A stretch of DNA of 48,688 bases from Solirubrobacteraceae bacterium (GCA_017882425.1 JADGPM010000236.1:1-48688), one strand, 5' to 3'. Shown: positions 14,627 to 27,220, counted from the stretch's first letter. The notes: generated from the letters alone by a model not told the origin. Translations and numbers: made by a program.

Positions 14627-15037
14627 ATGCAGACCCTGACCACCCACCTCGCCACGACCCGCGACCACGAGCTCCGTGACGCGTCCGCCGCCCCGCTGCC
14701 GCGCCTGCGCGACGAGCGCGCGTCGCTGCGCGACGCCGGCCGCGTCGTCCTGCGCCGCGCGCGGCCGCAGGACGGCGCCGCCGTCGCCCACCTCGCCGCG
14801 CTCGACGAGGCCCCGATCCCCCGCGGGGACGTGCTCGTCGTCGAGCTCGACGAGCGCATCGTCGCCGCGGTCCCCGTGGCCGGCGGCGAGGCCATCGCCG
14901 ACCCGTTCCAGCGCACCGCCGGCCTCGTCGACCTGGCCGAGCGCCGCGCCGCGCTGCTGCGCGGCGAGCTGCCGCGACGGTCGCGTCTGGGCGGCGCGCT
15001 GCGGCACGTCTCGGGCGGGCGCCGGGCCGCGGCATGA
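14627..15037 (+). CDS. hypothetical 136-aa protein, translationally coupled to the LAL regulator
   Basis: GAGGAG SD lies 7 nt before the ATG at 14627, and the stop overlaps the next ATG (ATGA). The core VVLRRARPQDGAAVAHLAALDE...ELDERIVAAVPVAGGEAIADPF resembles the first strands of a GNAT fold without the acetyl-CoA motif. Confidence 0.5.
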   Translation: MQTLTTHLATTRDHELRDASAAPLPRLRDERASLRDAGRVVLRRARPQDGAAVAHLAALDEAPIPRGDVLVVELDERIVAAVPVAGGEAIADPFQRTAGLVDLAERRAALLRGELPRRSRLGGALRHVSGGRRAAA

Positions 15038-18000
15038 GTGTCCCGGCGGGCCCCGCCGCGGCGCTCCGCGAGCGCGAGAGACCGGCGCGCGATACTGCGT
15101 CCGTGGCGACACGGATGACGAGCAGCCGGCTGATCGGGCGCGACGTCGAGCTCGCCGAGCTCGAGGCGGCGCTCGCGGACGCGGCCGACGGCCGGCCCTC
15201 CCTGACATTCGTCGCCGGCGAGTCCGGCGTCGGCAAGTCGCGCCTGCTCGCGGAGCTGAGCGCACGCGCCATCGCGACCGGCGCGCGCGTGGAGATCGGC
15301 GACTGCGTGGAGCTCGGCACCGAGGAACTCCCCTACGCCCCCATCGTCGCGGTTCTGCGCTCACTGGCACGCGAGGGGGACGCGGTCCTCGCAGAGCTCC
15401 CCCCGGCCACGCGCGCGGAGCTCGCCACGCTGCTGCCGGAGCTCGGCGCCGGCGCACCATCCCCCGACGAGCCCGATGCCCGCGCCACGGACAGCTCGCA
15501 GGCGCAGGCGCGCCTCTTCGAGGCCCTGCTGACGCTGCTGGACCGCCTGGGCACGGACGCGCCGCTGACCCTCGTCCTCGAGGACATCCACTGGGCCGAC
15601 CGGTCGACGCGCGCATTCCTCGTCTTCCTCGGCCGCAGTCTCTGGGCCCAGCGGGTGCTCGTCGTCGCCACCTACCGCTCCGACGAGCTGCACCGCCGCC
15701 ATCCGCTGCGCCCGCTGCTCGCCGAGCTCGAGCGCGACCCGCGCGCACGCCGGATCGAGCTCGTGCGCTTCACGCGGGGCGAGCTCGCCGAGCAGCTGCG
15801 CGACATCCTCGGCGCGCCGGCCGACGCCGGGCTCGCCGAACGGCTCTTCGAGCGCACCGAGGGCAACCCGCTCTTCACCGAGGAGCTGCTGGCTGCCGGC
15901 CTCGACGGCCGCAGCGCCCTCCCGACGACGCTGCGCGACGCGCTGATGGTCCGCATCGAGCGTCTCAGTGAGCCGGCGCAGGACGTGCTGCGGCTCCTCT
16001 CAGCCGGGCGGATGGTCGACCACGACGTGCTCGCCGAGGCCAGCGGCCTCGACGGACCGACCCTGCGCGCGGCGCTGCGCGAGGCTGCGGAGGCGAACAT
16101 CATCCGTGCCGACGAGCGTGGCCGCTACCGCTTCCGCCACGCCCTGCTGCGCGAGGTCGTGCACGACGATCTGCTGCCCGGTGAGCACGCCGAGCTGCAC
16201 CTGGCGCTGGCGCGCGCGCTGGAGCAGCAGGCGGGCACGGGCGGCGGCGAGGCGCTGCTGCGCGCCGGCATCGCCCACCACTATCTGTCCGCCGGCTGCC
16301 AGGACCTCGCGCTCGCCGCGTCGGTCCGTGCCGCCGACGCGGCCGAGCACGTCCACGCCTACGGCGAGGCGGCGGCCCAGCTCGAGCGCGCGCTGGACCT
16401 CTGGCCGCGCGTTCCCGGCGCCTGCGACCTCACCGGCGCCGACCACGTCAAGCTCCTCGCACGGGCGGGCGGCGCGCTCGTCAACGACGGCGAGTACGTC
16501 CGCGGTGTGGCGTTCCTGCAGCAGGCCCTCGACGAGATCGACGAGGCGGCCGAGCCCCACCGCGCAGTCGGCGTGCTCGACCGGCTCTCCAAGGCGTTCT
16601 GGTCGCTCGGGCGGGCGGAGGAGGCGCGGGCGACGATCGCGCGCGCCGTAGCGCTGATCCCCGACGGCGACGAGAGCGCCGAGCGAGCACGCGTGCTCGC
16701 CTGGCAGGCGAAGGCGTGCATGCTCCAGGGGCGCTATCGCGAGACGGTCGAGATCGCCCGCGAGGCGCTCGACGCCGCAGCGCGGGCCGGCGCCGCGGCG
16801 CCGCGCAACAGCGCGCTCAACTCACTCGGCATCGCCCTGATCTCCGGCGGAGCGGTCGAGGAGGGCGTCAGCAGCCTGCGCACCGCGCTGACAGACGCCA
16901 CAGACGAGTGGGACCGCGTGAGCGGGTACGTGAACCTCGCCGACTCACTGCACCTGATCGGCCGCTCGGACGAGGCGATGGAGATCGCGCTCGAGGGCCG
17001 CGACCGCATCACGCTCGGCGAACGCTCGTGCGACTGGCTGCACATGACGCTGTCCGAGATCCAGTGGGATCTCGGCGACTGGGACGCGGCGCGCACGACG
17101 ATGCCGCCGGAGGACCAGCGCCGCCACGGCATGACGTTCGCCTTCGCGGAGCTCCGCCGCGCCGAGATGCAGCTCGCAGGCGGCGACCACGACGCCGTCC
17201 GCGCCCGCCTGGAGCGGATCGCCGAGCTCGTCGCGGGTTCCCGCGAGCCGCAGTTCATCGGCTGGTTCGGCACCCTGCGGGGCGAGCTCGAGCGCCGCTG
17301 CGGCGACCTCGCAGGCGCCCGCGCGGCGATCGACGACGCACTCGACGCCATCGAGTTCTGCTCCGAGGACCTGCCCCGCGTCTCCAAGCTCGCCGAGGGC
17401 GGCGCCGCGATCGAGGCCGACGCCGCACAGCGCGCCCGCGATCTGGGCGACCCGGAGGCCGAGCGCCTTGCGATCGGGCGCGCCGAGGCCTACCTGGCAC
17501 GCGCCGAGGCGTGCGTCGACGGCTGGCGGCCGGTCGAGCATGCTCGTGCGGTGGCGACCGCCGCCGAGGTGGCGCGCGCCCGCGGCGCTGCAGACGAGCA
17601 GCGCTATGGCGCCACATGCGCGACATTCCTGGAGCTGCATCGTCCCTACCCCGCGGCGCTCGCCGGCCTGCGGCGCGCCGAGGCGCTCGCGGCGCAGGGC
17701 GAGCGTGAGCGCGCCGCCGAGGCGGTCGGCGAGGTTCGCGCCGCAGCCGACGCGCTCGGCGCCTGCTGGCTCGCGGCCGAGGCGGACGGGCTCGCCGCCC
17801 GCGCGCGGCTGCGCCAGGCGACGGGAGAGGACGGCGCGCACCCGGCGCCTGCGCCGCTGAACGGCGCCGGCGACGATCCATTCGGCCTCACGCCGCGTGA
17901 GCGCCAGGTCCTCGCGCTCGTCGCCGCCGGCGCGACGAACCGGGAGATCGGCGCGCAGCTGTACATGGCCGAGAAGACCGCCAGCGTGCACGTGTCACGC

Positions 18001-18075
18001 ATCCTCGCCAAGCTCGAGGTCCGCAGCCGGACCGAGGCGGCGGCAGTCGCGCACCGCCTCGGGCTCGACGGCTGA
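15034..18075 (+). CDS. LAL-type (large ATP-binding LuxR family) transcriptional regulator
   Basis: Walker A GESGVGKS, a long helical TPR-like middle, and a C-terminal LuxR HTH LTPRERQVLALVAAGATNREIGAQLYMAEKTASVHVSRILAKL. An alternative start is ATG 15115 (MTSSRLIGRD). Confidence 0.9.
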   Translation: MSVPAGPAAALRERERPARDTASVATRMTSSRLIGRDVELAELEAALADAADGRPSLTFVAGESGVGKSRLLAELSARAIATGARVEIGDCVELGTEELPYAPIVAVLRSLAREGDAVLAELPPATRAELATLLPELGAGAPSPDEPDARATDSSQAQARLFEALLTLLDRLGTDAPLTLVLEDIHWADRSTRAFLVFLGRSLWAQRVLVVATYRSDELHRRHPLRPLLAELERDPRARRIELVRFTRGELAEQLRDILGAPADAGLAERLFERTEGNPLFTEELLAAGLDGRSALPTTLRDALMVRIERLSEPAQDVLRLLSAGRMVDHDVLAEASGLDGPTLRAALREAAEANIIRADERGRYRFRHALLREVVHDDLLPGEHAELHLALARALEQQAGTGGGEALLRAGIAHHYLSAGCQDLALAASVRAADAAEHVHAYGEAAAQLERALDLWPRVPGACDLTGADHVKLLARAGGALVNDGEYVRGVAFLQQALDEIDEAAEPHRAVGVLDRLSKAFWSLGRAEEARATIARAVALIPDGDESAERARVLAWQAKACMLQGRYRETVEIAREALDAAARAGAAAPRNSALNSLGIALISGGAVEEGVSSLRTALTDATDEWDRVSGYVNLADSLHLIGRSDEAMEIALEGRDRITLGERSCDWLHMTLSEIQWDLGDWDAARTTMPPEDQRRHGMTFAFAELRRAEMQLAGGDHDAVRARLERIAELVAGSREPQFIGWFGTLRGELERRCGDLAGARAAIDDALDAIEFCSEDLPRVSKLAEGGAAIEADAAQRARDLGDPEAERLAIGRAEAYLARAEACVDGWRPVEHARAVATAAEVARARGAADEQRYGATCATFLELHRPYPAALAGLRRAEALAAQGERERAAEAVGEVRAAADALGACWLAAEADGLAARARLRQATGEDGAHPAPAPLNGAGDDPFGLTPRERQVLALVAAGATNREIGAQLYMAEKTASVHVSRILAKLEVRSRTEAAAVAHRLGLDG

Positions 18076-18121: not shown

Positions 18122-19003
18122 ATGCGCGTCGCCTTCATGGGCCTGGGGATCATGGGTTCCCGCATGGCCGACCACCTCGTCCGGGCCGGCCACGAGGTCA
18201 CCGTGTGGAACCGCACGCGGTCGACGGCCGACGCCTGGGCCGCCGAGCACGGCGCGCGGGTCTCCGCCACGCCCGCCGAGGCGGCACGCGACGCCGAGGC
18301 GCTGATCACGATGGTCGTCGACGGCCCGCAGGTCGAGGCGGTGTTGCTCGGTCCCGACGGCGCCGCGACCGCCGCTCCCGCGGGCGCACTCGTCGTCGAC
18401 ATGTCGACGATCGCCCCGGCGACCGCGCAGCGGCTGGGCGAGCGCCTGGCCGAGCGCGGCCTCGCGTTCGTCGACGCGCCGGTGACCGGCTCCTCCCCGG
18501 CCGCCGAGTCCGGAACGCTCACGATCATGGCCGGCGGAGCCGCCGCGGATGTCACACGGGCGATGCCGCTGTTCGAGGCGATGGGCCGGACGATCGTGCA
18601 CGTCGGCCCCGTCGGCCACGGCCAGCTCGTCAAGGTCCTGAACAACGCCGTCGCCGCGGCGAACGCCGTGACCGCGGCCCAGGCACTCGTCGCCGGGCGC
18701 GCGGTCGGCGTCGACCTCGACCGCCTCGTGGAGGTGATGGGCGCAGGCTCGGGCGGGTCGGCCGTCCTGAGCCTCAAGGCGGGGCCGATGCTCGCGCACG
18801 ACTATCCGCTGCTGTTCAAGACCGCGCACATGCTCAAGGACGTGCAGCACTGCCTGGACGCGGTGGGCGCCGCCGGCGCACCGTTCCCTGCCGCCGCACA
18901 GGCGCGCGAGGTGCTCGCGGCGACGGTCGGACGAGGCTTCGCGGACGACGACTACGCCGCCCTGGTGGAGAGCGTCGAGGGGTTCGCGGGCGTGCGCCTC
19001 TGA
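18122..19003 (+). CDS. NAD(P)-dependent oxidoreductase, 3-hydroxyisobutyrate/6-phosphogluconate dehydrogenase-like
   Basis: 293 aa with the Rossmann motif VAFMGLGIMGSRMADHL, plus DAPVTGS and LVKVLNN. Confidence 0.9.
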   Translation: MRVAFMGLGIMGSRMADHLVRAGHEVTVWNRTRSTADAWAAEHGARVSATPAEAARDAEALITMVVDGPQVEAVLLGPDGAATAAPAGALVVDMSTIAPATAQRLGERLAERGLAFVDAPVTGSSPAAESGTLTIMAGGAAADVTRAMPLFEAMGRTIVHVGPVGHGQLVKVLNNAVAAANAVTAAQALVAGRAVGVDLDRLVEVMGAGSGGSAVLSLKAGPMLAHDYPLLFKTAHMLKDVQHCLDAVGAAGAPFPAAAQAREVLAATVGRGFADDDYAALVESVEGFAGVRL

Positions 19004-19761: not shown

Positions 19762-19836
19762 GCCGTCCCGCAACGGCCGCCGCCGGTCTGTGCGATCGCG
19801 CACACGAGCGCCTGCGCCATGCTTCCCCCGTCACGG

Positions 19837-19865
19837 GAAAACCCCGATGGCGACTGGGGTTTTTC
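19837..19865. terminator. A-tract/stem/T-tract intrinsic terminator (bidirectional shape)
   Basis: gAAAACCCC-gatggcgact-GGGGTTTTTc, conspicuous in this GC-rich DNA, about 75 nt after the stop of 19219..19761. Confidence 0.5.
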
Positions 19866-20016: not shown

Positions 20017-20646
20017 ATGCCAATTGCCTTGAAGGAGTGGGCGGTCACGGTCCGCGCGCTCGCCGAAGGAGAGCAGCTCCTCACCCTCCGCAAGGGGGGC
20101 ATCCGTGAGGAGAACAAGCACTTCGAGCTCGAGCATGACCGCTTCTTCCTGTATCCGACGTTCGATCACCAGCGCAACGACGTCGTTCGTGAGGCCCACA
20201 TGCCGGAGCTGCGCCGCGCGCTCGAAGAGGGCGTCTGGCCGGACGGCGATCCGCCGATCCACGCGCTCACGCGCGACGGCGGGATCCCGCAGCCCGACCG
20301 CGTCCGGGTCCGTGCCTGGGCCGAGGTGGCCGGGCACTACACCGTGACCGACCCGCGCGTGGTCCACGATCTGTCCCCGTTCTACGTCTGGACGACGGAC
20401 TACGCCGAGAAGCGCCTCAGCTGGAAGCCCCGCCACCCGCTGCACGTCGTGCTGCTGCGTGCGTACCGCATCCCGCGACCCGTCACGGTTCGTGTGCGCG
20501 GCGACTACGGCGGCTGTCGCTCGTGGCTGGAGATCGCCCGTGACCTCCCGTTCGAGGGCACGCCGGTCCTCTCCGACGACGAATTCGGCCGCGTCCAGGA
20601 GGAGATCGAGGCGATCGTCTCCGGGCGCGTCCCCGCGCTGGCCTGA
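20017..20646 (+). CDS. DUF1802-like protein (family recognised from the N-terminal signature only)
   Basis: In-frame ATG at 20017 gives MPIALKEWAVTVRALAEGEQLLTLRKGGIREENKHFELEHDRFFLYPTFDHQ. The ORF part upstream of this ATG runs through the terminator and is not credible. Confidence 0.7.
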   Translation: MPIALKEWAVTVRALAEGEQLLTLRKGGIREENKHFELEHDRFFLYPTFDHQRNDVVREAHMPELRRALEEGVWPDGDPPIHALTRDGGIPQPDRVRVRAWAEVAGHYTVTDPRVVHDLSPFYVWTTDYAEKRLSWKPRHPLHVVLLRAYRIPRPVTVRVRGDYGGCRSWLEIARDLPFEGTPVLSDDEFGRVQEEIEAIVSGRVPALA

Positions 20647-20699
20647 CGTCCATCTCCCCCACCGCCGAGCGACTGATCGCTGACGCCTCCGGCGTCCTG

Positions 20700-21593
20700 G
20701 TGATCGGCATCGGCGGTGGCGGCGACGTGGTCGGCGCGCTCGCCGCCGCGGGAATCGCCGAGCGGCTCGGCACCAGGGCCGAGCTCGGCGGCCTCACCTG
20801 GGAGCGCCGCCCGATCGACCCGCTCCCGGGCCCGCGCCGCCTCGACGAGGTCGTGCAGGCCGAGCGCCTGCATCCCGCCGCCGCGCTCGCCGGGCCCACC
20901 ACATCGGGCCCCGGCGGCTTCCTGTTCGCGGAGAGCGGCATGGCCGGCTTCCTCGGCCGCCCCACCGTGCTGATCGACCCCAACCCCGGCTCCGCCGTCT
21001 GCGGCGCCGGGATCGCCCGGGCGGCCCGGCATCTCGGCTGCGATCTCGTCGTCCTGCTCGACGTCGGCGGCGACGTCCTCGCGCACGGGGACGAGCCGGG
21101 ACTCGCGAGCCCGCTCGCCGATGCGGTGCTGCTCGCCGCCGCGCCCGCGATCGCGGCCACCGGGATCGGTGTCATCGCCGCGGTCTTCGGGGCCGGCTGC
21201 GACGGTGAGCTCACCCCGGCGGAGGTGCTGGAGCGCGTCGCCGAGGTGCAGGAGGCCGGCGGGGGCCTGGGGACCGACGCCCTCGCCCCTGACGTCGTCA
21301 CCCGCATCGAGGCGGCGGCCGCACGCATCCCGACCGAGGCCAGCGCGATGGCGGCGCGCTGCGCGCGTGGTCAGGTCGGCCCGGTCCCCATCCGCGGCGG
21401 CCGCCGGACGGTGGAGCTGACCGCGGACGGCGGCCTGGTGCACTGGCTGGACCCCGAGCGCGCGATCGTCTCCGCGGCCCGCCTGGCGGCGGCGGTCGCG
21501 GGCGCCGCCGACCTCGCGGCGGCCGACGCCGTCCTGGCGGCGCGCGGCGTGCGCACCGAGCTCGCCTACGAGCGCGACGCCGCGGCCGGCTGA
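20700..21593 (+). CDS. DUF1152-like protein with N-terminal glycine-rich loop GIGGGGD
   Basis: The first canonical start (GTG 20700) sits directly on the VIGIGGGGDVVGAL loop. The same frame is open upstream (LTSISPTAERLIADASGVL), so the true start is probably upstream, for example the CTG at 20643 that overlaps the DUF1802-like stop. Confidence 0.7.
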   Translation: MIGIGGGGDVVGALAAAGIAERLGTRAELGGLTWERRPIDPLPGPRRLDEVVQAERLHPAAALAGPTTSGPGGFLFAESGMAGFLGRPTVLIDPNPGSAVCGAGIARAARHLGCDLVVLLDVGGDVLAHGDEPGLASPLADAVLLAAAPAIAATGIGVIAAVFGAGCDGELTPAEVLERVAEVQEAGGGLGTDALAPDVVTRIEAAAARIPTEASAMAARCARGQVGPVPIRGGRRTVELTADGGLVHWLDPERAIVSAARLAAAVAGAADLAAADAVLAARGVRTELAYERDAAAG

Positions 21594-21599
21594 TCCCCG

Positions 21600-22349
21600 A
21601 TGTCCTGGCAGGAGACCGCCTCGCCGAACTTCCAGGCGCGCCACGACGCGCGCGACGAGAGCGCCGTCGTCGGCGTGCTGGAGCAGCTCGAGGCGACCCG
21701 CGAGCGCCTCGAGCGGTGGTTCGCACCGCTGCCCGATCACGTCGCCGTCGTCCTGCACCCCAGCGCCGGCCAGCTCACGCTCGCCCAGCCGGCTGCCGGG
21801 CTGCTGCGCCATCTGACGACGCCGGCCGCCCGCCGGTACGTCGCGGGCTGGTTCACCACGCGGGAGGTCCACGTGCTCGCCCCGCGGCTGCTCGCCGCGC
21901 GCGCGTCCAACGTGCCCGGCTCGCGCGAGATGCTGGAGCTGACCCCCTCGGCGCTCTACGCCCAGCTCGTCGTCGGCCGCGCGAACCCGGGGCTGCCACC
22001 GCCGTTCCGGCCCGCCACCGCCGTGCGGTACGCACGCTGGGCCTGGCTGTCGGCCGGCGCCGGACAGTGGTTCTCCGGGCAGACCGCGCATGCCCGCCCG
22101 GCGATCGGACGGCGCCTGCGCGAGGGCGGCGAGCCGAGCTTCCCGCCCGGGATCCGGGACGCGCAGCTGCTCGGCGGCTCCGTGCTCGACCTGCTCGTGC
22201 GCGAGGAGGGCGAGACGGCCGCGGCCGCCCTCGCCATCGCCGAGCTGCGCGACCCGCGGCGGCTGCTCGAGCATGCGTTCCGCGGGCGCAGCATCGTCCA
22301 CAGTGCGGGCGCGTGGCGCGCCCACCTGGCGCGCATGGCGAGCGCCTGA
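21600..22349 (+). CDS. hypothetical protein (249 aa), third gene of the operon
   Basis: The ATG lies 6 nt after the previous stop. Composition is protein-like (W, F, Y, H spread through it). No catalytic motif or family recognised. Confidence 0.6.
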   Translation: MSWQETASPNFQARHDARDESAVVGVLEQLEATRERLERWFAPLPDHVAVVLHPSAGQLTLAQPAAGLLRHLTTPAARRYVAGWFTTREVHVLAPRLLAARASNVPGSREMLELTPSALYAQLVVGRANPGLPPPFRPATAVRYARWAWLSAGAGQWFSGQTAHARPAIGRRLREGGEPSFPPGIRDAQLLGGSVLDLLVREEGETAAAALAIAELRDPRRLLEHAFRGRSIVHSAGAWRAHLARMASA

Positions 22350-22359
22350 GGCGGCGGGA

Positions 22360-22851
22360 TCAGCTCGAGACCAGCGAACCGACCCAGACGATCAGGCCGA
22401 CGAGCGCGACGCCGGCGAGCAGGCCGGCGAACAGCTTCGCGGGCCGCGGCCCAGGCGAGCTTGCGGAGCTGTCGTGCAGCTCGACCTGGAGCAGGACCTC
22501 GCGGGCGGTCGCCTCGCCCGAGAGCGGCACCAGCACGTCACGCGGCCCGGCGGCGAGCATGTCGGGGACGTCGAACCCGCGCGAGCGGCGCACGAGGCTC
22601 GGCACGCCCTCCTCGAGCAGCAGGTTCGAGATGAAGTCGGCCTCGGCCTGGTTGCGGCCGGTGGCGACCCTGACGAGGTCGCCCTCGGTGTACTGCGGCT
22701 TGATCTTGCGGGCGCGGGCCTGGCGCTCGGTCGCCTCGTCGCGGGCGGGGCTCTGATAGGTCAGCGGCATGCCGCAATCGGGGCAGAAGCGCTCGTCCAG
22801 GCCGTGCATCGTGGCGCAGCGGGGGCAGACGAGCAGCTCGTCGTCATCCAT
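22360..22851 (-). CDS. zinc-ribbon / DUF2007-like (putative signal-transducing) protein with C-terminal membrane anchor
   Basis: Contains CPRC..x12..CPDCG, the core GDLVRVATGRNQAEADFISNLLLEEGVP, and a C-terminal TM LFAGLLAGVALVGLIVWVGSLV. The start overlaps the mec stop region by 8 nt. Confidence 0.7.
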   Translation of the reverse strand: MDDDELLVCPRCATMHGLDERFCPDCGMPLTYQSPARDEATERQARARKIKPQYTEGDLVRVATGRNQAEADFISNLLLEEGVPSLVRRSRGFDVPDMLAAGPRDVLVPLSGEATAREVLLQVELHDSSASSPGPRPAKLFAGLLAGVALVGLIVWVGSLVSS

Positions 22852-23257
22852 CGCCGGCGACCCCGACCCCCGCGTCGACGATCCGGCCGTCGGTGATCTC
22901 GAAGCTGCGGACGTCCGGCTCGGCGTCGGCGCCGTCGGCGAGCCCGACGATCAGCCATTCGACCCCCGGCCAGTGTTGCGCGAAGTTCAGATCCGTCTGC
23001 GAGGGAAACGGCTCGGAGCGCGTGTGCGAGTGGTAGATCCCGCCGTGCTGCTCGCCGCGATCCTCGATCTCCGTGATCAGGCGGTACACCTCGAGGCCAT
23101 CGACGGCGAAGCGCATCGGGCTCGCGGCGGTGTTCTCCGCCGGGTGGACGCTGACGGCGACGCCGTCACGCACTCCGATGAGGCCGCAGCACTCGTTCGG
23201 GTGCTCGCGGCGGGCGTGGTCGACGATGATCGAGAGAAGCTCGGCGGAGATGCGCAT
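22844..23257 (-). CDS. mec: JAMM/MPN+ metalloprotease (Mec+-like, sulfur-carrier C-terminal hydrolase)
   Basis: 137 aa with the upstream Glu (HPNECCG) and the JAMM motif HSHTRSEPFPSQTD (H-x-H-x7-S-x2-D). Confidence 0.9.
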   Translation of the reverse strand: MRISAELLSIIVDHARREHPNECCGLIGVRDGVAVSVHPAENTAASPMRFAVDGLEVYRLITEIEDRGEQHGGIYHSHTRSEPFPSQTDLNFAQHWPGVEWLIVGLADGADAEPDVRSFEITDGRIVDAGVGVAGDG

Positions 23258-24570: not shown

Positions 24571-25755
24571 TCACCAGCTCGCGCGCAGGCGCTCCAGGCC
24601 GCTGCGGATCTCCTGCGGCGGATGCGTCGTGAACGACAGGCGCAACGCACGGGAATCCGGCGTTCCGGCGAAGAACGGGGCGCCCGGGACGAACGCCACG
24701 CGCTGCTCGATCGCGCGCGCGAGCAGCTCCTGCGCGTCGTGGCCCTGGGGCAGCCGCGCCCAGACGAACATCCCGCCGGCCGGGCGGTTCCAGGTGCTCC
24801 CCGGCGGGAGCGCCCCGGCCAGCCCGCCGAGCAGGGCGTCGCGCCGCTCGCGATAGACCTCGCACAGCCCGGCGATCCGGGCGCCGAGGTCGACATCGGC
24901 GAGCCACGCGGCGGCTGCGGCCTGGTCGATGGTCGAGGAGTGCAGGTCGGCCGCCTGCTTGGCGACGACGAGCCCGCGGCGCAGCGCCGCCGGCGTGCGG
25001 ACCCAGCCGATCCGCAGGCCCGGCGCGGCGATCTTCGAGAGTGTCGAGAGCGCGAGCGTGCGGTCCGCGGCGGGGCCCAGCGCGGCGATCGGACCTTCGG
25101 CGTCGCCCTCGAAGCGCAGCGCGCCGTACGGGTCGTCCTCGATCAGCCACAGGCCGCGGCGCGCGGCGATCTCCGCCACGGCGACGCGGCGCGCGGCCGG
25201 CAGCGTGCGCCCCGTCGGGTTCTGGAAGTTCGGGATCAGGTAGAGCGCGACGGGTCGCTCGGCGGCGGCCGTCGCGTCGAGCGCCTCCGGCACGATGCCG
25301 TCCTCGTCACAGGCGACCGGCACCACGCGCGCGCCGGCGAGCGCGAAGCACTGCAGCGCCGCGAGGTAGGAGGGCTCCTCGACGAGCACGACGTCGCCCG
25401 GCTCGAGCAGGACCGTCGCGATCAGCGTGAGCGCCTGCTGGGAGCCGCTCGTGACGAGGACGTCGCCGGGCTCCGTGCGCAGGCCGCGCGCCTCCAGCAG
25501 GCCGGCGATCTGCCCGCGCAGGCGCGGGTCGCCCTCCGTCGTGGAGTACTGCAGCGCGCGAGGCGCGTCCGCTCCGCTCAGGACGCGGTCATAGGCGGCG
25601 CGCAGCCCCGCGACGTCGAACAGCTCGGGCGCCGGGAGGCCGCCCGCGAACGAGATGAACCCCGGCTGCTCGGTGAGCGCCAGGATGTCGCGGACCGGCG
25701 AGCCGGCGACCCCACGCAGGCGGGCGGCGGGCTCGCGCGGGGCGGCGACGCTCAG
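24571..25755 (-). CDS. PLP-dependent aminotransferase, class I/II (AspC/ARO8/LysN-like)
   Basis: The track ORF 24571..25389 is only the C-terminal two thirds. My translation of the same frame upstream gives LSVAAPREPAARLRGVAGSPVRDILALTEQPGFISFAGGLPAPELF...ALQYSTTEGDPRLRGQIAG...VLVTSGSQQALTLIATVLLEPGDVVLVEEPSY, a typical N-terminal domain. That stretch has no in-frame ATG, GTG or TTG. The CTG at 25753-25755 overlaps the cysO stop. Confidence 0.8.
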   Translation of the reverse strand: MSVAAPREPAARLRGVAGSPVRDILALTEQPGFISFAGGLPAPELFDVAGLRAAYDRVLSGADAPRALQYSTTEGDPRLRGQIAGLLEARGLRTEPGDVLVTSGSQQALTLIATVLLEPGDVVLVEEPSYLAALQCFALAGARVVPVACDEDGIVPEALDATAAAERPVALYLIPNFQNPTGRTLPAARRVAVAEIAARRGLWLIEDDPYGALRFEGDAEGPIAALGPAADRTLALSTLSKIAAPGLRIGWVRTPAALRRGLVVAKQAADLHSSTIDQAAAAAWLADVDLGARIAGLCEVYRERRDALLGGLAGALPPGSTWNRPAGGMFVWARLPQGHDAQELLARAIEQRVAFVPGAPFFAGTPDSRALRLSFTTHPPQEIRSGLERLRASW

Positions 25756-26027
25756 CTCCCGCCGGCCATCGCCGGCAGGATCACGAGCGAGTCGGACTCG
25801 CCTACGGGTGTCTCGAGGCCGTCGAGGACGCGGACGTCCTCGTCGTTGAGGTAGACGTTGACGTAGCGGTTCAGGTCACCGTCCGTCCCGAACAGCTGCG
25901 AGCTCGTCTCCGGATGCGCCGTCGCGAGGTTGCGCAGGACGTCGCCGACGTTCGCGCCGTCGGCGCTCACCTCGCGCTCCCCGCCGACGGAGGGGCGCAG
26001 GACCGGTGGGATACGGATCGTGGCCAT
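25752..26027 (-). CDS. cysO: ThiS/MoaD/CysO-family sulfur-carrier protein ending in GG-Ser
   Basis: This is the last 91 aa of ORF 25752..26132 (MATIRIPPVLRPSVGG...VILPAMAGGS), with a beta-grasp-like pattern. It lies directly downstream of the E1 gene. Confidence 0.8.
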   Translation of the reverse strand: MATIRIPPVLRPSVGGEREVSADGANVGDVLRNLATAHPETSSQLFGTDGDLNRYVNVYLNDEDVRVLDGLETPVGESDSLVILPAMAGGS

Positions 26028-26038
26028 GGCGGCGGACC

Positions 26039-27220
26039 CTATCCGGCGGCGGCGCAGAACGCCTCGTAGTCGGGGAAGACGCCGAGCTCCTCGTCGGAGA
26101 TCTCGTCCGGCTCGCGCGAGCAGATCGGGCACTCGGGGTCGCGGCGCACCTTCAGCTCCGTGACCTCGGCGGCGAGCGCGTCATACATCAGCAGGCGGCC
26201 GATCAGCGGGTCGCCGGCACCGATGATGAGCTTGATGACCTCCGTCGCCTGTAGCAGCCCCATCGTCCCCGGGAGCACGCCGAGGACACCGTTGGCGCCG
26301 CACGACGGCGCGAGCTCCGCGGGCGGCGGCTGGCGGAAGAGGCAGCGGTAGCACGGGCCCTCATAGGGCTTGAAGACGCTGAGCTGGCCCTCGAAGCCGA
26401 GGATCGCGGCGGAGACGACCGGGATCTTCAGGCGGACCGTCGCGTCGTTGAGCAGGTAGCGGGTCGGGAAGTTGTCGACGCCGTCGACGATGATGTCCCA
26501 GCCCTCGATGATCTCCATGATGTTCGAGGCGTCCAGGCGCGTCCTGTACTTCACGACCTCGACGTCCGGGTTGAGGTCGTTGATGACCTCCGCCGCCGAG
26601 TCGACCTTCGACACGCCGATGCGCGAGGTGCTGTGGATGACCTGGCGCTGCAGGTTGGAGAGGTCCACGACGTCGTCGTCGACGATGCCCAGGGTGCCGA
26701 CGCCGGCCGCGGCGAGATACAGGGCCGTCGGCGACCCGAGGCCGCCGGCGCCGAGCAGCAGGACCCTGGCGTCGAGCAGCTTCTGCTGGCCGTCGATCCC
26801 GACCTCGGGGACGAGCAGGTGGCGGCTGTAGCGCTCGCGCTGCTCGGGTGTGAAGCTGCGCGGCACCTCGACCTCGTAGCCGCGGTCCTTCCACAGCGTG
26901 ATCCCGCCGGTCATCGACTCGACGTGCTCGTAACCCAGGTCGCGCTGCAGCGTGTTGGCGGCGAACACGGAGCGGTTGCCCGCGGCGCAGTAGAGGATCA
27001 CGCGCTGCGAGCGGTCCGGGACGACGCCGTCGATGCGCTGCTCGAGGTAGCCGCGCGGGACGTGGATCGCGCCCGGCAGCCTGCCGGAGGCGAGCTCCTC
27101 GCTCTCGCGCACGTCGATGACGGTCACGCCCTCGCCGATCAGTTGGGCGACCTCGGACGGGTCGACCTCCGAGATCTCCGCCCTCAGGCGGCGCAGATGC
27201 TCGCTTCCGGACACGCTCAT
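26039..27220 (-). CDS. rhodanese-fused ThiF/MoeB-type E1 adenylyltransferase/sulfurtransferase (MoeZ-like, rhodanese N-terminal)
   Basis: The N-terminal rhodanese has active-site CAAGNRS. The E1 fold has LLLGAGGLGSP and zinc CxxC pairs CYRC and CPIC. An AGGTGA SD lies 7 nt before the ATG. Confidence 0.9.
   Translation of the reverse strand: MSVSGSEHLRRLRAEISEVDPSEVAQLIGEGVTVIDVRESEELASGRLPGAIHVPRGYLEQRIDGVVPDRSQRVILYCAAGNRSVFAANTLQRDLGYEHVESMTGGITLWKDRGYEVEVPRSFTPEQRERYSRHLLVPEVGIDGQQKLLDARVLLLGAGGLGSPTALYLAAAGVGTLGIVDDDVVDLSNLQRQVIHSTSRIGVSKVDSAAEVINDLNPDVEVVKYRTRLDASNIMEIIEGWDIIVDGVDNFPTRYLLNDATVRLKIPVVSAAILGFEGQLSVFKPYEGPCYRCLFRQPPPAELAPSCGANGVLGVLPGTMGLLQATEVIKLIIGAGDPLIGRLLMYDALAAEVTELKVRRDPECPICSREPDEISDEELGVFPDYEAFCAAAG

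Follow-up and report, generated by a model that had tools for sequence, protein, structure and literature searches.

What do three tightly packed genes do that sit side by side in the core genome of one class of soil actinobacteria (Thermoleophilia) and have no published function? They lie at positions 20017-22349, on the plus strand, of a 48,688-nt stretch of DNA from a Solirubrobacteraceae bacterium (GCA_017882425.1, JADGPM010000236.1:1-48688), which was analysed at its full length and is called the window here. A preliminary description, made from the sequence alone, had presented the locus as a candidate undescribed three-gene system composed of a DUF1802-like gene (gene 1), a DUF1152-like gene (gene 2) and a gene whose product it could not place (gene 3). 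Its statement that none of the three has a known function stood, as the searchable literature was blank on DUF1152 and held one incidental mention of DUF1802. The answer that we favour, tentatively, is that the trio is a Thermoleophilia-specific, vertically inherited metabolic operon in which DUF1152 would act in the salvage of pentoses derived from S-adenosylmethionine (SAM), with DUF1802 and gene 3 as accessory partners. With good confidence, we regard the locus as part of core-genome metabolism or housekeeping rather than of defence, mobile elements or the cytoskeleton.

Pfam searches bore out both family calls. Gene 1 matched PF08819 (DUF1802) with an E-value of 2.9e-54 and 184 bits against a cut-off of 25, its residues 4-195 covering profile positions 1-173 of 174, and gene 2 matched PF06626 (DUF1152) with an E-value of 4.5e-79 and 266 bits (cut-off 27) over profile positions 2-294 of 295. 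The motifs singled out in the preliminary description proved to be family-wide: the N-terminal KEWA...RKGG residues were invariant in 14 diverse DUF1802 homologues, and the GxGGGGD and DxGGD loops, the second of which reads DVGGD in the window, were invariant in 35 DUF1152 representatives (26-44% identical to the first aligned sequence). The same 35 representatives share many invariant Asp and Glu residues, and the gene 2 protein combines a Rossmann-like N-terminal half and two glycine-rich loops ending in Asp with invariant Asp, Glu and Arg. These gene calls are not new, since both DUF families are already catalogued. Neither gene 1 by sequence nor the 14-sequence DUF1802 profile matched a chain in the PDB. 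Superficially, KEWA...G.Q...RKGG resembles the GxKxxExR strand-turn-strand of ASCH/PUA-like beta-barrels, a likeness raised in the preliminary description; there was however no profile match in low-sensitivity tests, in which hhalign returned a probability of 0.4% against a single unverified E. coli YqfB sequence, and the likeness gained no support.

Gene 3 had no match in Pfam, NCBIfam or PADLOC, and no PDB chain was matched by its sequence or profile. Its divergent relatives, those bearing an HExxH motif included, also found nothing in Pfam at E-values up to 10. With more than 3,000 homologues, the best 120 of them 61-94% identical, gene 3 defines a family outside Pfam coverage. The AlphaFold2 model built from 36 homologues reached a mean predicted local distance difference test (pLDDT) of 93.4 and a predicted template-modelling score (pTM) of 0.92 and has a thermolysin-like catalytic-domain fold. 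Foldseek ranks 1-49 in the PDB were all catalytic domains of M1 aminopeptidases or of leukotriene A4 (LTA4) hydrolase, with query-normalised template-modelling (TM) scores of 0.30-0.58 (most 0.44-0.58) and E-values from 1e-2, a similarity that is moderate. In an alignment of 45 metagenome members of the family, four show the gluzincin arrangement: HEYSH or HEYAH occupies the helix spanning residues 115-128 of the model, and a Glu stands 28 residues further on in the long helix that comes next (WLCEGAA). The motif is replaced by RLYAQ, with the Glu retained, in 27 of the 45, and this third-ligand Glu (WLxEGxA) is kept in most relatives. In the window, the two segments read ALYAQ and WLSAGAG, so that both the HExxH motif and the third-ligand Glu are missing: A118, L119, Q122 and A152 stand where H, E, H and E are expected, and the protein cannot bind a catalytic zinc canonically. 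Gene 3 is thus a dead peptidase, a predicted gluzincin-like domain in which none of the three zinc ligands is left, in agreement with the earlier remark that its layout recalls MA-type peptidases without HExxH. It resembles M1 aminopeptidases and LTA4 hydrolase in predicted fold, and through its relatives in the placing of the ligands, whereas it is a single 249-aa domain unlike any Pfam peptidase family or PDB chain in sequence. The family offers an example of a metallopeptidase scaffold that is highly conserved despite loss of the zinc site.

A biochemical context for DUF1152 was found in the Thermoleophilaceae. The DUF1152 profile found as its best match a 506-aa protein, P0241, whose N-terminal part is a class II aldolase domain; in a search with P0241, 86 of the best 120 clusters (52-100% identity) carry Aldolase_II and DUF1152 in one protein. 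On three long contigs (L084, L085 and L086) the fusion gene lies directly 3' of a gene of the IF-2B family, and on two of these contigs the neighbours share 17 nt. That gene passes as mtnA: scores of 346 and 392 bits were obtained against the TIGR00512 equivalog for S-methyl-5-thioribose-1-phosphate isomerase (cut-off 279). In a Thermoleophilaceae metagenome-assembled genome (MAG; locus L167) mtnA, aldolase and DUF1152 each form a gene of their own, with an overlap of 11 nt between mtnA and aldolase and of 4 nt between aldolase and DUF1152, and a GNAT gene follows them. The aldolase domain of the fusion retains its metal-binding histidines and scored best against the FucA, ribulose-1-phosphate aldolase and AraD models (111-124 bits; MtnB, 65 bits). 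No member of the MtnK or MtnP family was listed within 7-9 kb of these four loci. The DUF1152 protein of the window is 53% identical to the fused domain and 36-40% identical to archaeal members, which is consistent with a single function of DUF1152 inside the class. An apparent fusion of DUF1802 with DUF1152 (P0169, 512 aa) was discarded as an out-of-frame read-through artefact. Right after DUF1152, a GNAT acetyltransferase (Acetyltransf_3, about 169 aa) was observed in four of five Thermoleophilaceae loci (L084, L085, L167 and L168), one of which has neither mtnA nor aldolase; this acetyltransferase may be another functional partner of DUF1152.

Class II aldolases of the FucA/AraD kind act with an isomerase and a kinase in the fucose, rhamnose and arabinose pathways. 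The Thermoleophilaceae operon combines mtnA, a FucA/Ald2-like aldolase and a third gene in overlapping order. This layout resembles that of mtnK-mtnA-ald2 in the dihydroxyacetone phosphate (DHAP) shunt for 5'-methylthioadenosine (MTA) as well as 5'-deoxyadenosine, whose cluster consists of mtnK (or mtnP), mtnA and ald2 (PMC10986504). The difference is that the place of MtnK, of the APH type, or of MtnP, of the purine nucleoside phosphorylase (PNP) type, is taken by DUF1152, which is unrelated to either in sequence. We therefore infer that DUF1152 is the enzyme-like core of the module and serves the salvage of SAM-derived 5-methylthio- or 5-deoxy-pentoses by a DHAP-shunt-like route. It would most likely act at the phosphoryl-transfer entry, as a kinase or a phosphorylase, because the Thermoleophilaceae operon has an isomerase and an aldolase but no recognisable kinase or phosphorylase. 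The products of DUF1802 and gene 3 would be non-catalytic, accessory partners with a binding or scaffold role, encoded in an operon within the conserved rph-murI ... mec-cysM-cysO region. Two weaker hints point the same way: in five Paenibacillaceae loci DUF1802 stands divergent from mtnK-mtnA, both of which exceed their equivalog cut-offs, and the locus in the window adjoins sulfur-amino-acid genes. The fuller proposal, that DUF1152 is a new family of salvage enzymes for SAM by-products (a non-homologous replacement of 5-methylthioribose/5-deoxyribose kinase or MTA phosphorylase, or an enzyme of a post-aldolase step) and forms a complex with DUF1802 and the dead gluzincin as new accessory subunits in Solirubrobacterales, appears rather improbable to us as a whole.

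Several observations weigh against a salvage role. The AlphaFold2 model of gene 2 (pLDDT 92.7) has no confident neighbour in the PDB, the best TM-score in Foldseek being 0.27, and no link of DUF1152 to a kinase, phosphorylase or phosphatase was found by sequence or profile. A tblastn search of the 48.7-kb window found neither mtnA nor a class II aldolase, so that DUF1152 is here paired with DUF1802 and a dead peptidase instead of the DHAP-shunt partners. The association with mtnA and aldolase is known from the Thermoleophilaceae alone, because 80 distant DUF1152 loci show neither of the two, nor any shared neighbour, and one further Thermoleophilaceae locus (L168) has DUF1152 and GNAT without mtnA. 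In Paenibacillaceae, the adjacency of DUF1802 to mtnKA is loose (0.3-2.4 kb, on the opposite strand, with a suf operon on the other side), and other low-GC DUF1802 loci have unrelated neighbours and no mtnKA. Around the loci of DUF1802, mtnA and the window, the search for Rfam elements, SAM riboswitches included, found none. Finally, adjacency that is conserved inside one class, together with its flanks, cannot separate function from inheritance.

The top Foldseek matches of the DUF1152 model in the PDB, all with a TM-score of at most 0.27, were MTA/S-adenosylhomocysteine (SAH) nucleosidases, PNPs and SurE. We considered DUF1152 as a homologue of PNP or MTA/SAH nucleosidase (MTAN) from this ranking and from apparent motif parallels. 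The MTAN/PNP fold gave the best matches (E-values of 2e-3 to 1e-1) and shares with DUF1152 a glycine-rich loop after an N-terminal strand; the TM-scores, however, were only 0.15-0.21, with a root-mean-square deviation of about 17 A and a Foldseek probability of about 0.2. Kinship is not supported, and the candidate was rejected after hhalign of the DUF1152 profile (probability 0.18%) with an E. coli MTAN sequence that had been verified against 3o4v. Neither the gene 2 sequence nor the 35-member DUF1152 profile matched a PDB entry.

The preliminary description had presented the trio as a system and asked whether it sits in variable islands of relatives. Neither a portable system nor a variable island was upheld, as the neighbourhood check found the trio, and the DUF1802-gene 3 pair, in the core genome of Thermoleophilia only, in conserved synteny. 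The window itself is a conserved actinobacterial core region with rph, murI, mec, cysM, cysO and moeZ. Conexibacter sp. SYSU D00693 (L001) and a 2.8-Mb MAG contig (L002) both show the order dehydrogenase, DUF1802, DUF1152, gene 3, followed by a convergent mec-tatA-cysM-cysO block; the dehydrogenase, of the NAD_binding_2 type, is the immediate 5' neighbour of DUF1802 in both, and the AAA_16/TPR/LuxR-type regulator architecture likewise lies upstream in Conexibacter. A DUF1802-seeded metagenome scan yielded 80 loci. Among the high-GC ones, gene 3 lies at most 400 nt from DUF1802 in 33 of 58 with enough flanking DNA and downstream of it in 48 of 50 informative cases. In at least 17, DUF1152 directly follows DUF1802 (gap 8-124 nt in about 17), and gene 3 is then visible in eight. 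Exact-sequence look-ups named proteins of these loci as Solirubrobacterales or Thermoleophilaceae. Open reading frame (ORF) clusters matching the neighbours in the window flank the pair, with downstream relatives of DUF2007, JAB and cysM recognised by sequence. Two clusters of 550-670 aa, inferred to be the LuxR-family regulator, recur just 5' of DUF1802 in most high-GC loci, and one of about 305 aa, probably the beta-hydroxyacid dehydrogenase, immediately 5' of it in several. Neither DUF1152 nor gene 3 was present at eight low-GC DUF1802 loci. The pair of DUF1802 and gene 3 is confined to the class Thermoleophilia and always occupies one conserved core neighbourhood; it is the older association, and DUF1152 entered between its members in a single sub-lineage. 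As a chromosomal arrangement, the trio is specific to its lineage and vertically inherited, neither mobile nor island-borne.

Outside this class DUF1152 has a life of its own. At 50% identity the family falls into about 1,217 clusters, and its wide distribution takes in Thermoproteota, Hadarchaeales, Archaeoglobi and Halobacteria as well as several phyla of bacteria. The 80 distant loci mentioned above came from a genome scan seeded with 12 sequences; they are mostly archaeal and span Desulfurococcales, Sulfolobales, Hadarchaeales, Archaeoglobaceae, Halobacteria, Asgard archaea, Thermodesulfobacteriota, Dadabacteria and others. None of them has DUF1802 or gene 3, and ten sampled immediate neighbours of DUF1152 had no common theme. 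The commonest neighbour, in 12 loci, was the his operon of Hadarchaeales. At eight Hadarchaeales loci (L029, L035, L037, L041, L045 and L053-L055), DUF1152 was seen by eye to lie between an Lrp/AsnC regulator and hisC-, hisG- and hisB-like genes, an arrangement that, judged from the sequences, appears to be lineage-specific synteny with a pathway using phosphoribosyl pyrophosphate. Three mid-GC metagenome loci of the other family (L095, L096 and L151) have DUF1802 beside a same-strand aldo/keto reductase, Pfam-confirmed in L095, and in two of them a LysR-type regulator, identified by eye, also flanks DUF1802.

This distribution is the ground on which the best surviving alternative stands, namely that the three are unrelated housekeeping genes kept as neighbours by descent in a syntenic region where DUF1152 landed by chance. 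The flanking regulator and dehydrogenase on the 5' side and DUF2007, mec, tatA and cysM on the 3' side are conserved along with the trio, and beyond Thermoleophilia neither DUF family retains the other members as neighbours. The link between DUF1152 and gene 3 can also be broken, by one opposite-strand gene in Conexibacter and by inserts of 3.7-4 kb at two metagenome loci (L135 and L143). What descent alone accounts for less well is the common strand with very short gaps, both those of the window (6 nt and a possible 4-nt overlap) and those between DUF1802 and DUF1152 elsewhere, and the persistence of DUF1802-gene 3 adjacency down to 40-45% protein identity. We consider this explanation somewhat improbable.

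A role of DUF1152 in sugar-phosphate metabolism at some other step or on some other substrate seems unlikely. It could then be an enzyme of the enolase-phosphatase type acting after MtnB, a phosphatase, or an acid- or deoxy-sugar kinase that uses the neighbouring beta-hydroxyacid dehydrogenase. Fusions of MtnB to downstream enzymes of methionine salvage, such as Tetrahymena MtnBD, speak for it (PMC2759508, PMC3698126). The aldolase-DUF1152 fusion is like them in that a class II aldolase-family domain is joined to what would be the enzyme of another step in the same pathway, and unlike them in that DUF1152 stands as partner where they have a cupin dioxygenase or a HAD enolase-phosphatase, and the domain is aldolase-like rather than MtnB-like. 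The many invariant acidic residues of DUF1152 would suit such a reaction, as would the dehydrogenase directly 5' of DUF1802 in Conexibacter and the MAG contig, and probably at several metagenome loci, and the GNAT gene as a conserved downstream partner in Thermoleophilaceae. The closer affinity of the aldolase domain to FucA and ribulose-1-phosphate aldolase models than to MtnB argues the other way, and DUF1152 resembled neither the HAD and enolase families nor any known kinase family.

It is quite unlikely that gene 3 and DUF1802 form a module for peptide or protein processing, active as a protease in Thermoleophilaceae and degenerate in the window, with DUF1152 as a passenger. The relatives with HExxH and Glu, one of which (L152) begins 76 nt after DUF1802, would be expected under this explanation, and so would the standing of DUF1802 and gene 3 as the most conserved pair and the JAB peptidase among the convergent neighbours. 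However, gene 3 lies 3.5-5 kb from DUF1802 at the other three of the four HExxH-bearing loci, and no small ORF resembling a substrate was found. Moreover, most gene 3 members lack the ligands and are nevertheless strongly conserved, as the identities of the best 120 matches indicate, so the conserved role is not zinc proteolysis.

An anti-phage defence or nucleotide-signalling system, a role that the preliminary description had left open, is very improbable: the genes are compact, co-directional and uncharacterised, one of them has a glycine-rich loop and the upstream regulator has a sub-threshold BrxC/BrxD match, but no PADLOC-DB 2.0 model matched any of the three proteins at E-values up to 1, the locus lies in conserved core synteny and in no variable island, none of the three families was found in IMG/VR, only 1, 2 and 0 of 72,556 plasmid records carried them, and DUF1152 stands alone in archaea. 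The signature of the T4 loop in FtsZ and tubulin is GGGTGS/TG. A cytoskeletal trio with DUF1152 as a divergent GTPase of the FtsZ/tubulin kind, for which an N-terminal strand and GGGG loop resembling the FtsZ T1 loop by eye had spoken, is scarcely credible, as the 50 best PDB matches listed for the confident gene 2 model included no FtsZ or tubulin chain, the DUF1152 profile had no PDB match and the second loop is DxGGD, not the T4 signature.

DUF1152 and DUF1802 have long been listed in Pfam; neither family has a characterised member or a solved structure that a sequence search can detect, and next to nothing has been published on them. Searches of the accessible literature did not find gene 3 described as a gluzincin family without its zinc site, the confinement of DUF1802 and gene 3 as a pair, whether DUF1152 is included or not, to a single class, or the operon and fusion of mtnA, aldolase and DUF1152. 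This operon and fusion provide the first testable biochemical context for DUF1152, the disposal or recycling of MTA and of 5'-deoxyadenosine, and the main value of the finding is a route to de-orphaning the family. As DUF1152 is common in archaea, thousands of genes would gain an annotation if the salvage role is true; should the lead fail, what is left is just a lineage-specific set of conserved hypothetical genes.

The G+C content across the window is 70-79%, the names of homologues assign it to Solirubrobacterales in the class Thermoleophilia, and three plus-strand ORFs, strongly coding by their G+C at third codon positions (GC3), fill the locus (Table 1). The tight packing and probable coupling noted in the preliminary description were confirmed: 6 nt separate the gene 2 stop from the gene 3 ATG, and the junction of genes 1 and 2 holds a candidate overlap. 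The listed GTG start of gene 2 lies 53 nt behind the gene 1 stop, and its true start probably lies upstream of this GTG because homologues carry an N-terminal segment that is encoded there in open frame. No ATG, GTG or TTG occurs in that part of the frame; its sole start-like codon, the candidate CTG at 20643-20645, overlaps the gene 1 TGA as 'CTGA'. Gene 1 opens with MPIALKEW, as in Conexibacter and the MAG contig. Downstream, the convergent gene reported earlier was found with 10 nt between its stop and that of gene 3, and beyond it follow mec (JAB), tatA, cysM, an aminotransferase, cysO and moeZ, all by Pfam matches.

Table 1. Positions of the three genes and of neighbouring features in the window
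Feature	Position	Strand	Basis
Gene 1, DUF1802 protein, 209 aa	20017..20646	+	PF08819 match; GC3 0.90; start shared with L001 and L002
Gene 2, DUF1152 protein	listed GTG 20700..21593 (297 aa); candidate CTG 20643..21593 (316 aa)	+	PF06626 match; model with pLDDT 92.7; GC3 0.95
Gene 3, predicted gluzincin-like (MA-clan-like) domain, 249 aa	21600..22349	+	Model with pLDDT 93.4; Foldseek; GC3 0.95
Large ATP-binding LuxR-family regulator (AAA_16, TPR, GerE)	15034..18075	+	Pfam match
Beta-hydroxyacid dehydrogenase (NAD_binding_2 and NAD_binding_11)	18122..19003	+	Pfam match
Lineage-specific ORF, 180 aa	19219..19761	+	GC3 0.93
Terminator-like hairpin followed by U5	19825..19864	+	Fold -26.2 kcal/mol; z = -0.75
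Convergent zinc-ribbon/DUF2007-like membrane protein, closing the operon	22360..22851	-	Pfam match
JAB/Mec peptidase	22844..23257	-	Pfam match
Class I/II aminotransferase	24571..25755	-	Pfam match
ThiS/CysO-like sulfur carrier	25752..26132	-	Pfam match

Insulation by an upstream terminator was borne out in part. A hairpin followed by UUUUU does exist behind the 180-aa ORF; a consensus scan, however, returned no plus-strand terminator upstream of gene 1, and the folding energy is ordinary, so a terminator at this place is merely plausible. The 180-aa ORF, which lies between the dehydrogenase and gene 1, is without a Pfam match, contains CWCC and CLEC as its two Cys pairs and is missing from the corresponding position in Conexibacter and the MAG contig; from its sequence it is probably a lineage-specific zinc-binding protein. 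Further upstream, the LuxR-family regulator, of the LAL type, would be a candidate regulator of the three-gene operon. Its BrxC/BrxD match (16 bits against a cut-off of 22) stems from the AAA domain that both have and does not indicate BREX.

On the convergent side, the aminotransferase lies between cysM and cysO, and no such gene is present in the PALP-ThiS interval of Conexibacter and the MAG contig. Its frame stays open over 393 codons as far back as 25749, whereas its first canonical start is at 25389; at 25755-25753 stands a CTG that overlaps the TGA of cysO as 'CTGA', the arrangement also found at the junction of genes 1 and 2. The two junctions hint that this genome may use CTG re-initiation starts. 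The CysO-like carrier clusters with the JAB/Mec peptidase, cysM and a ThiF-rhodanese (MoeZ-like) gene, and its C-terminus, ...AMAGGS, runs one residue beyond Gly-Gly, which fits a carrier that would require C-terminal trimming.

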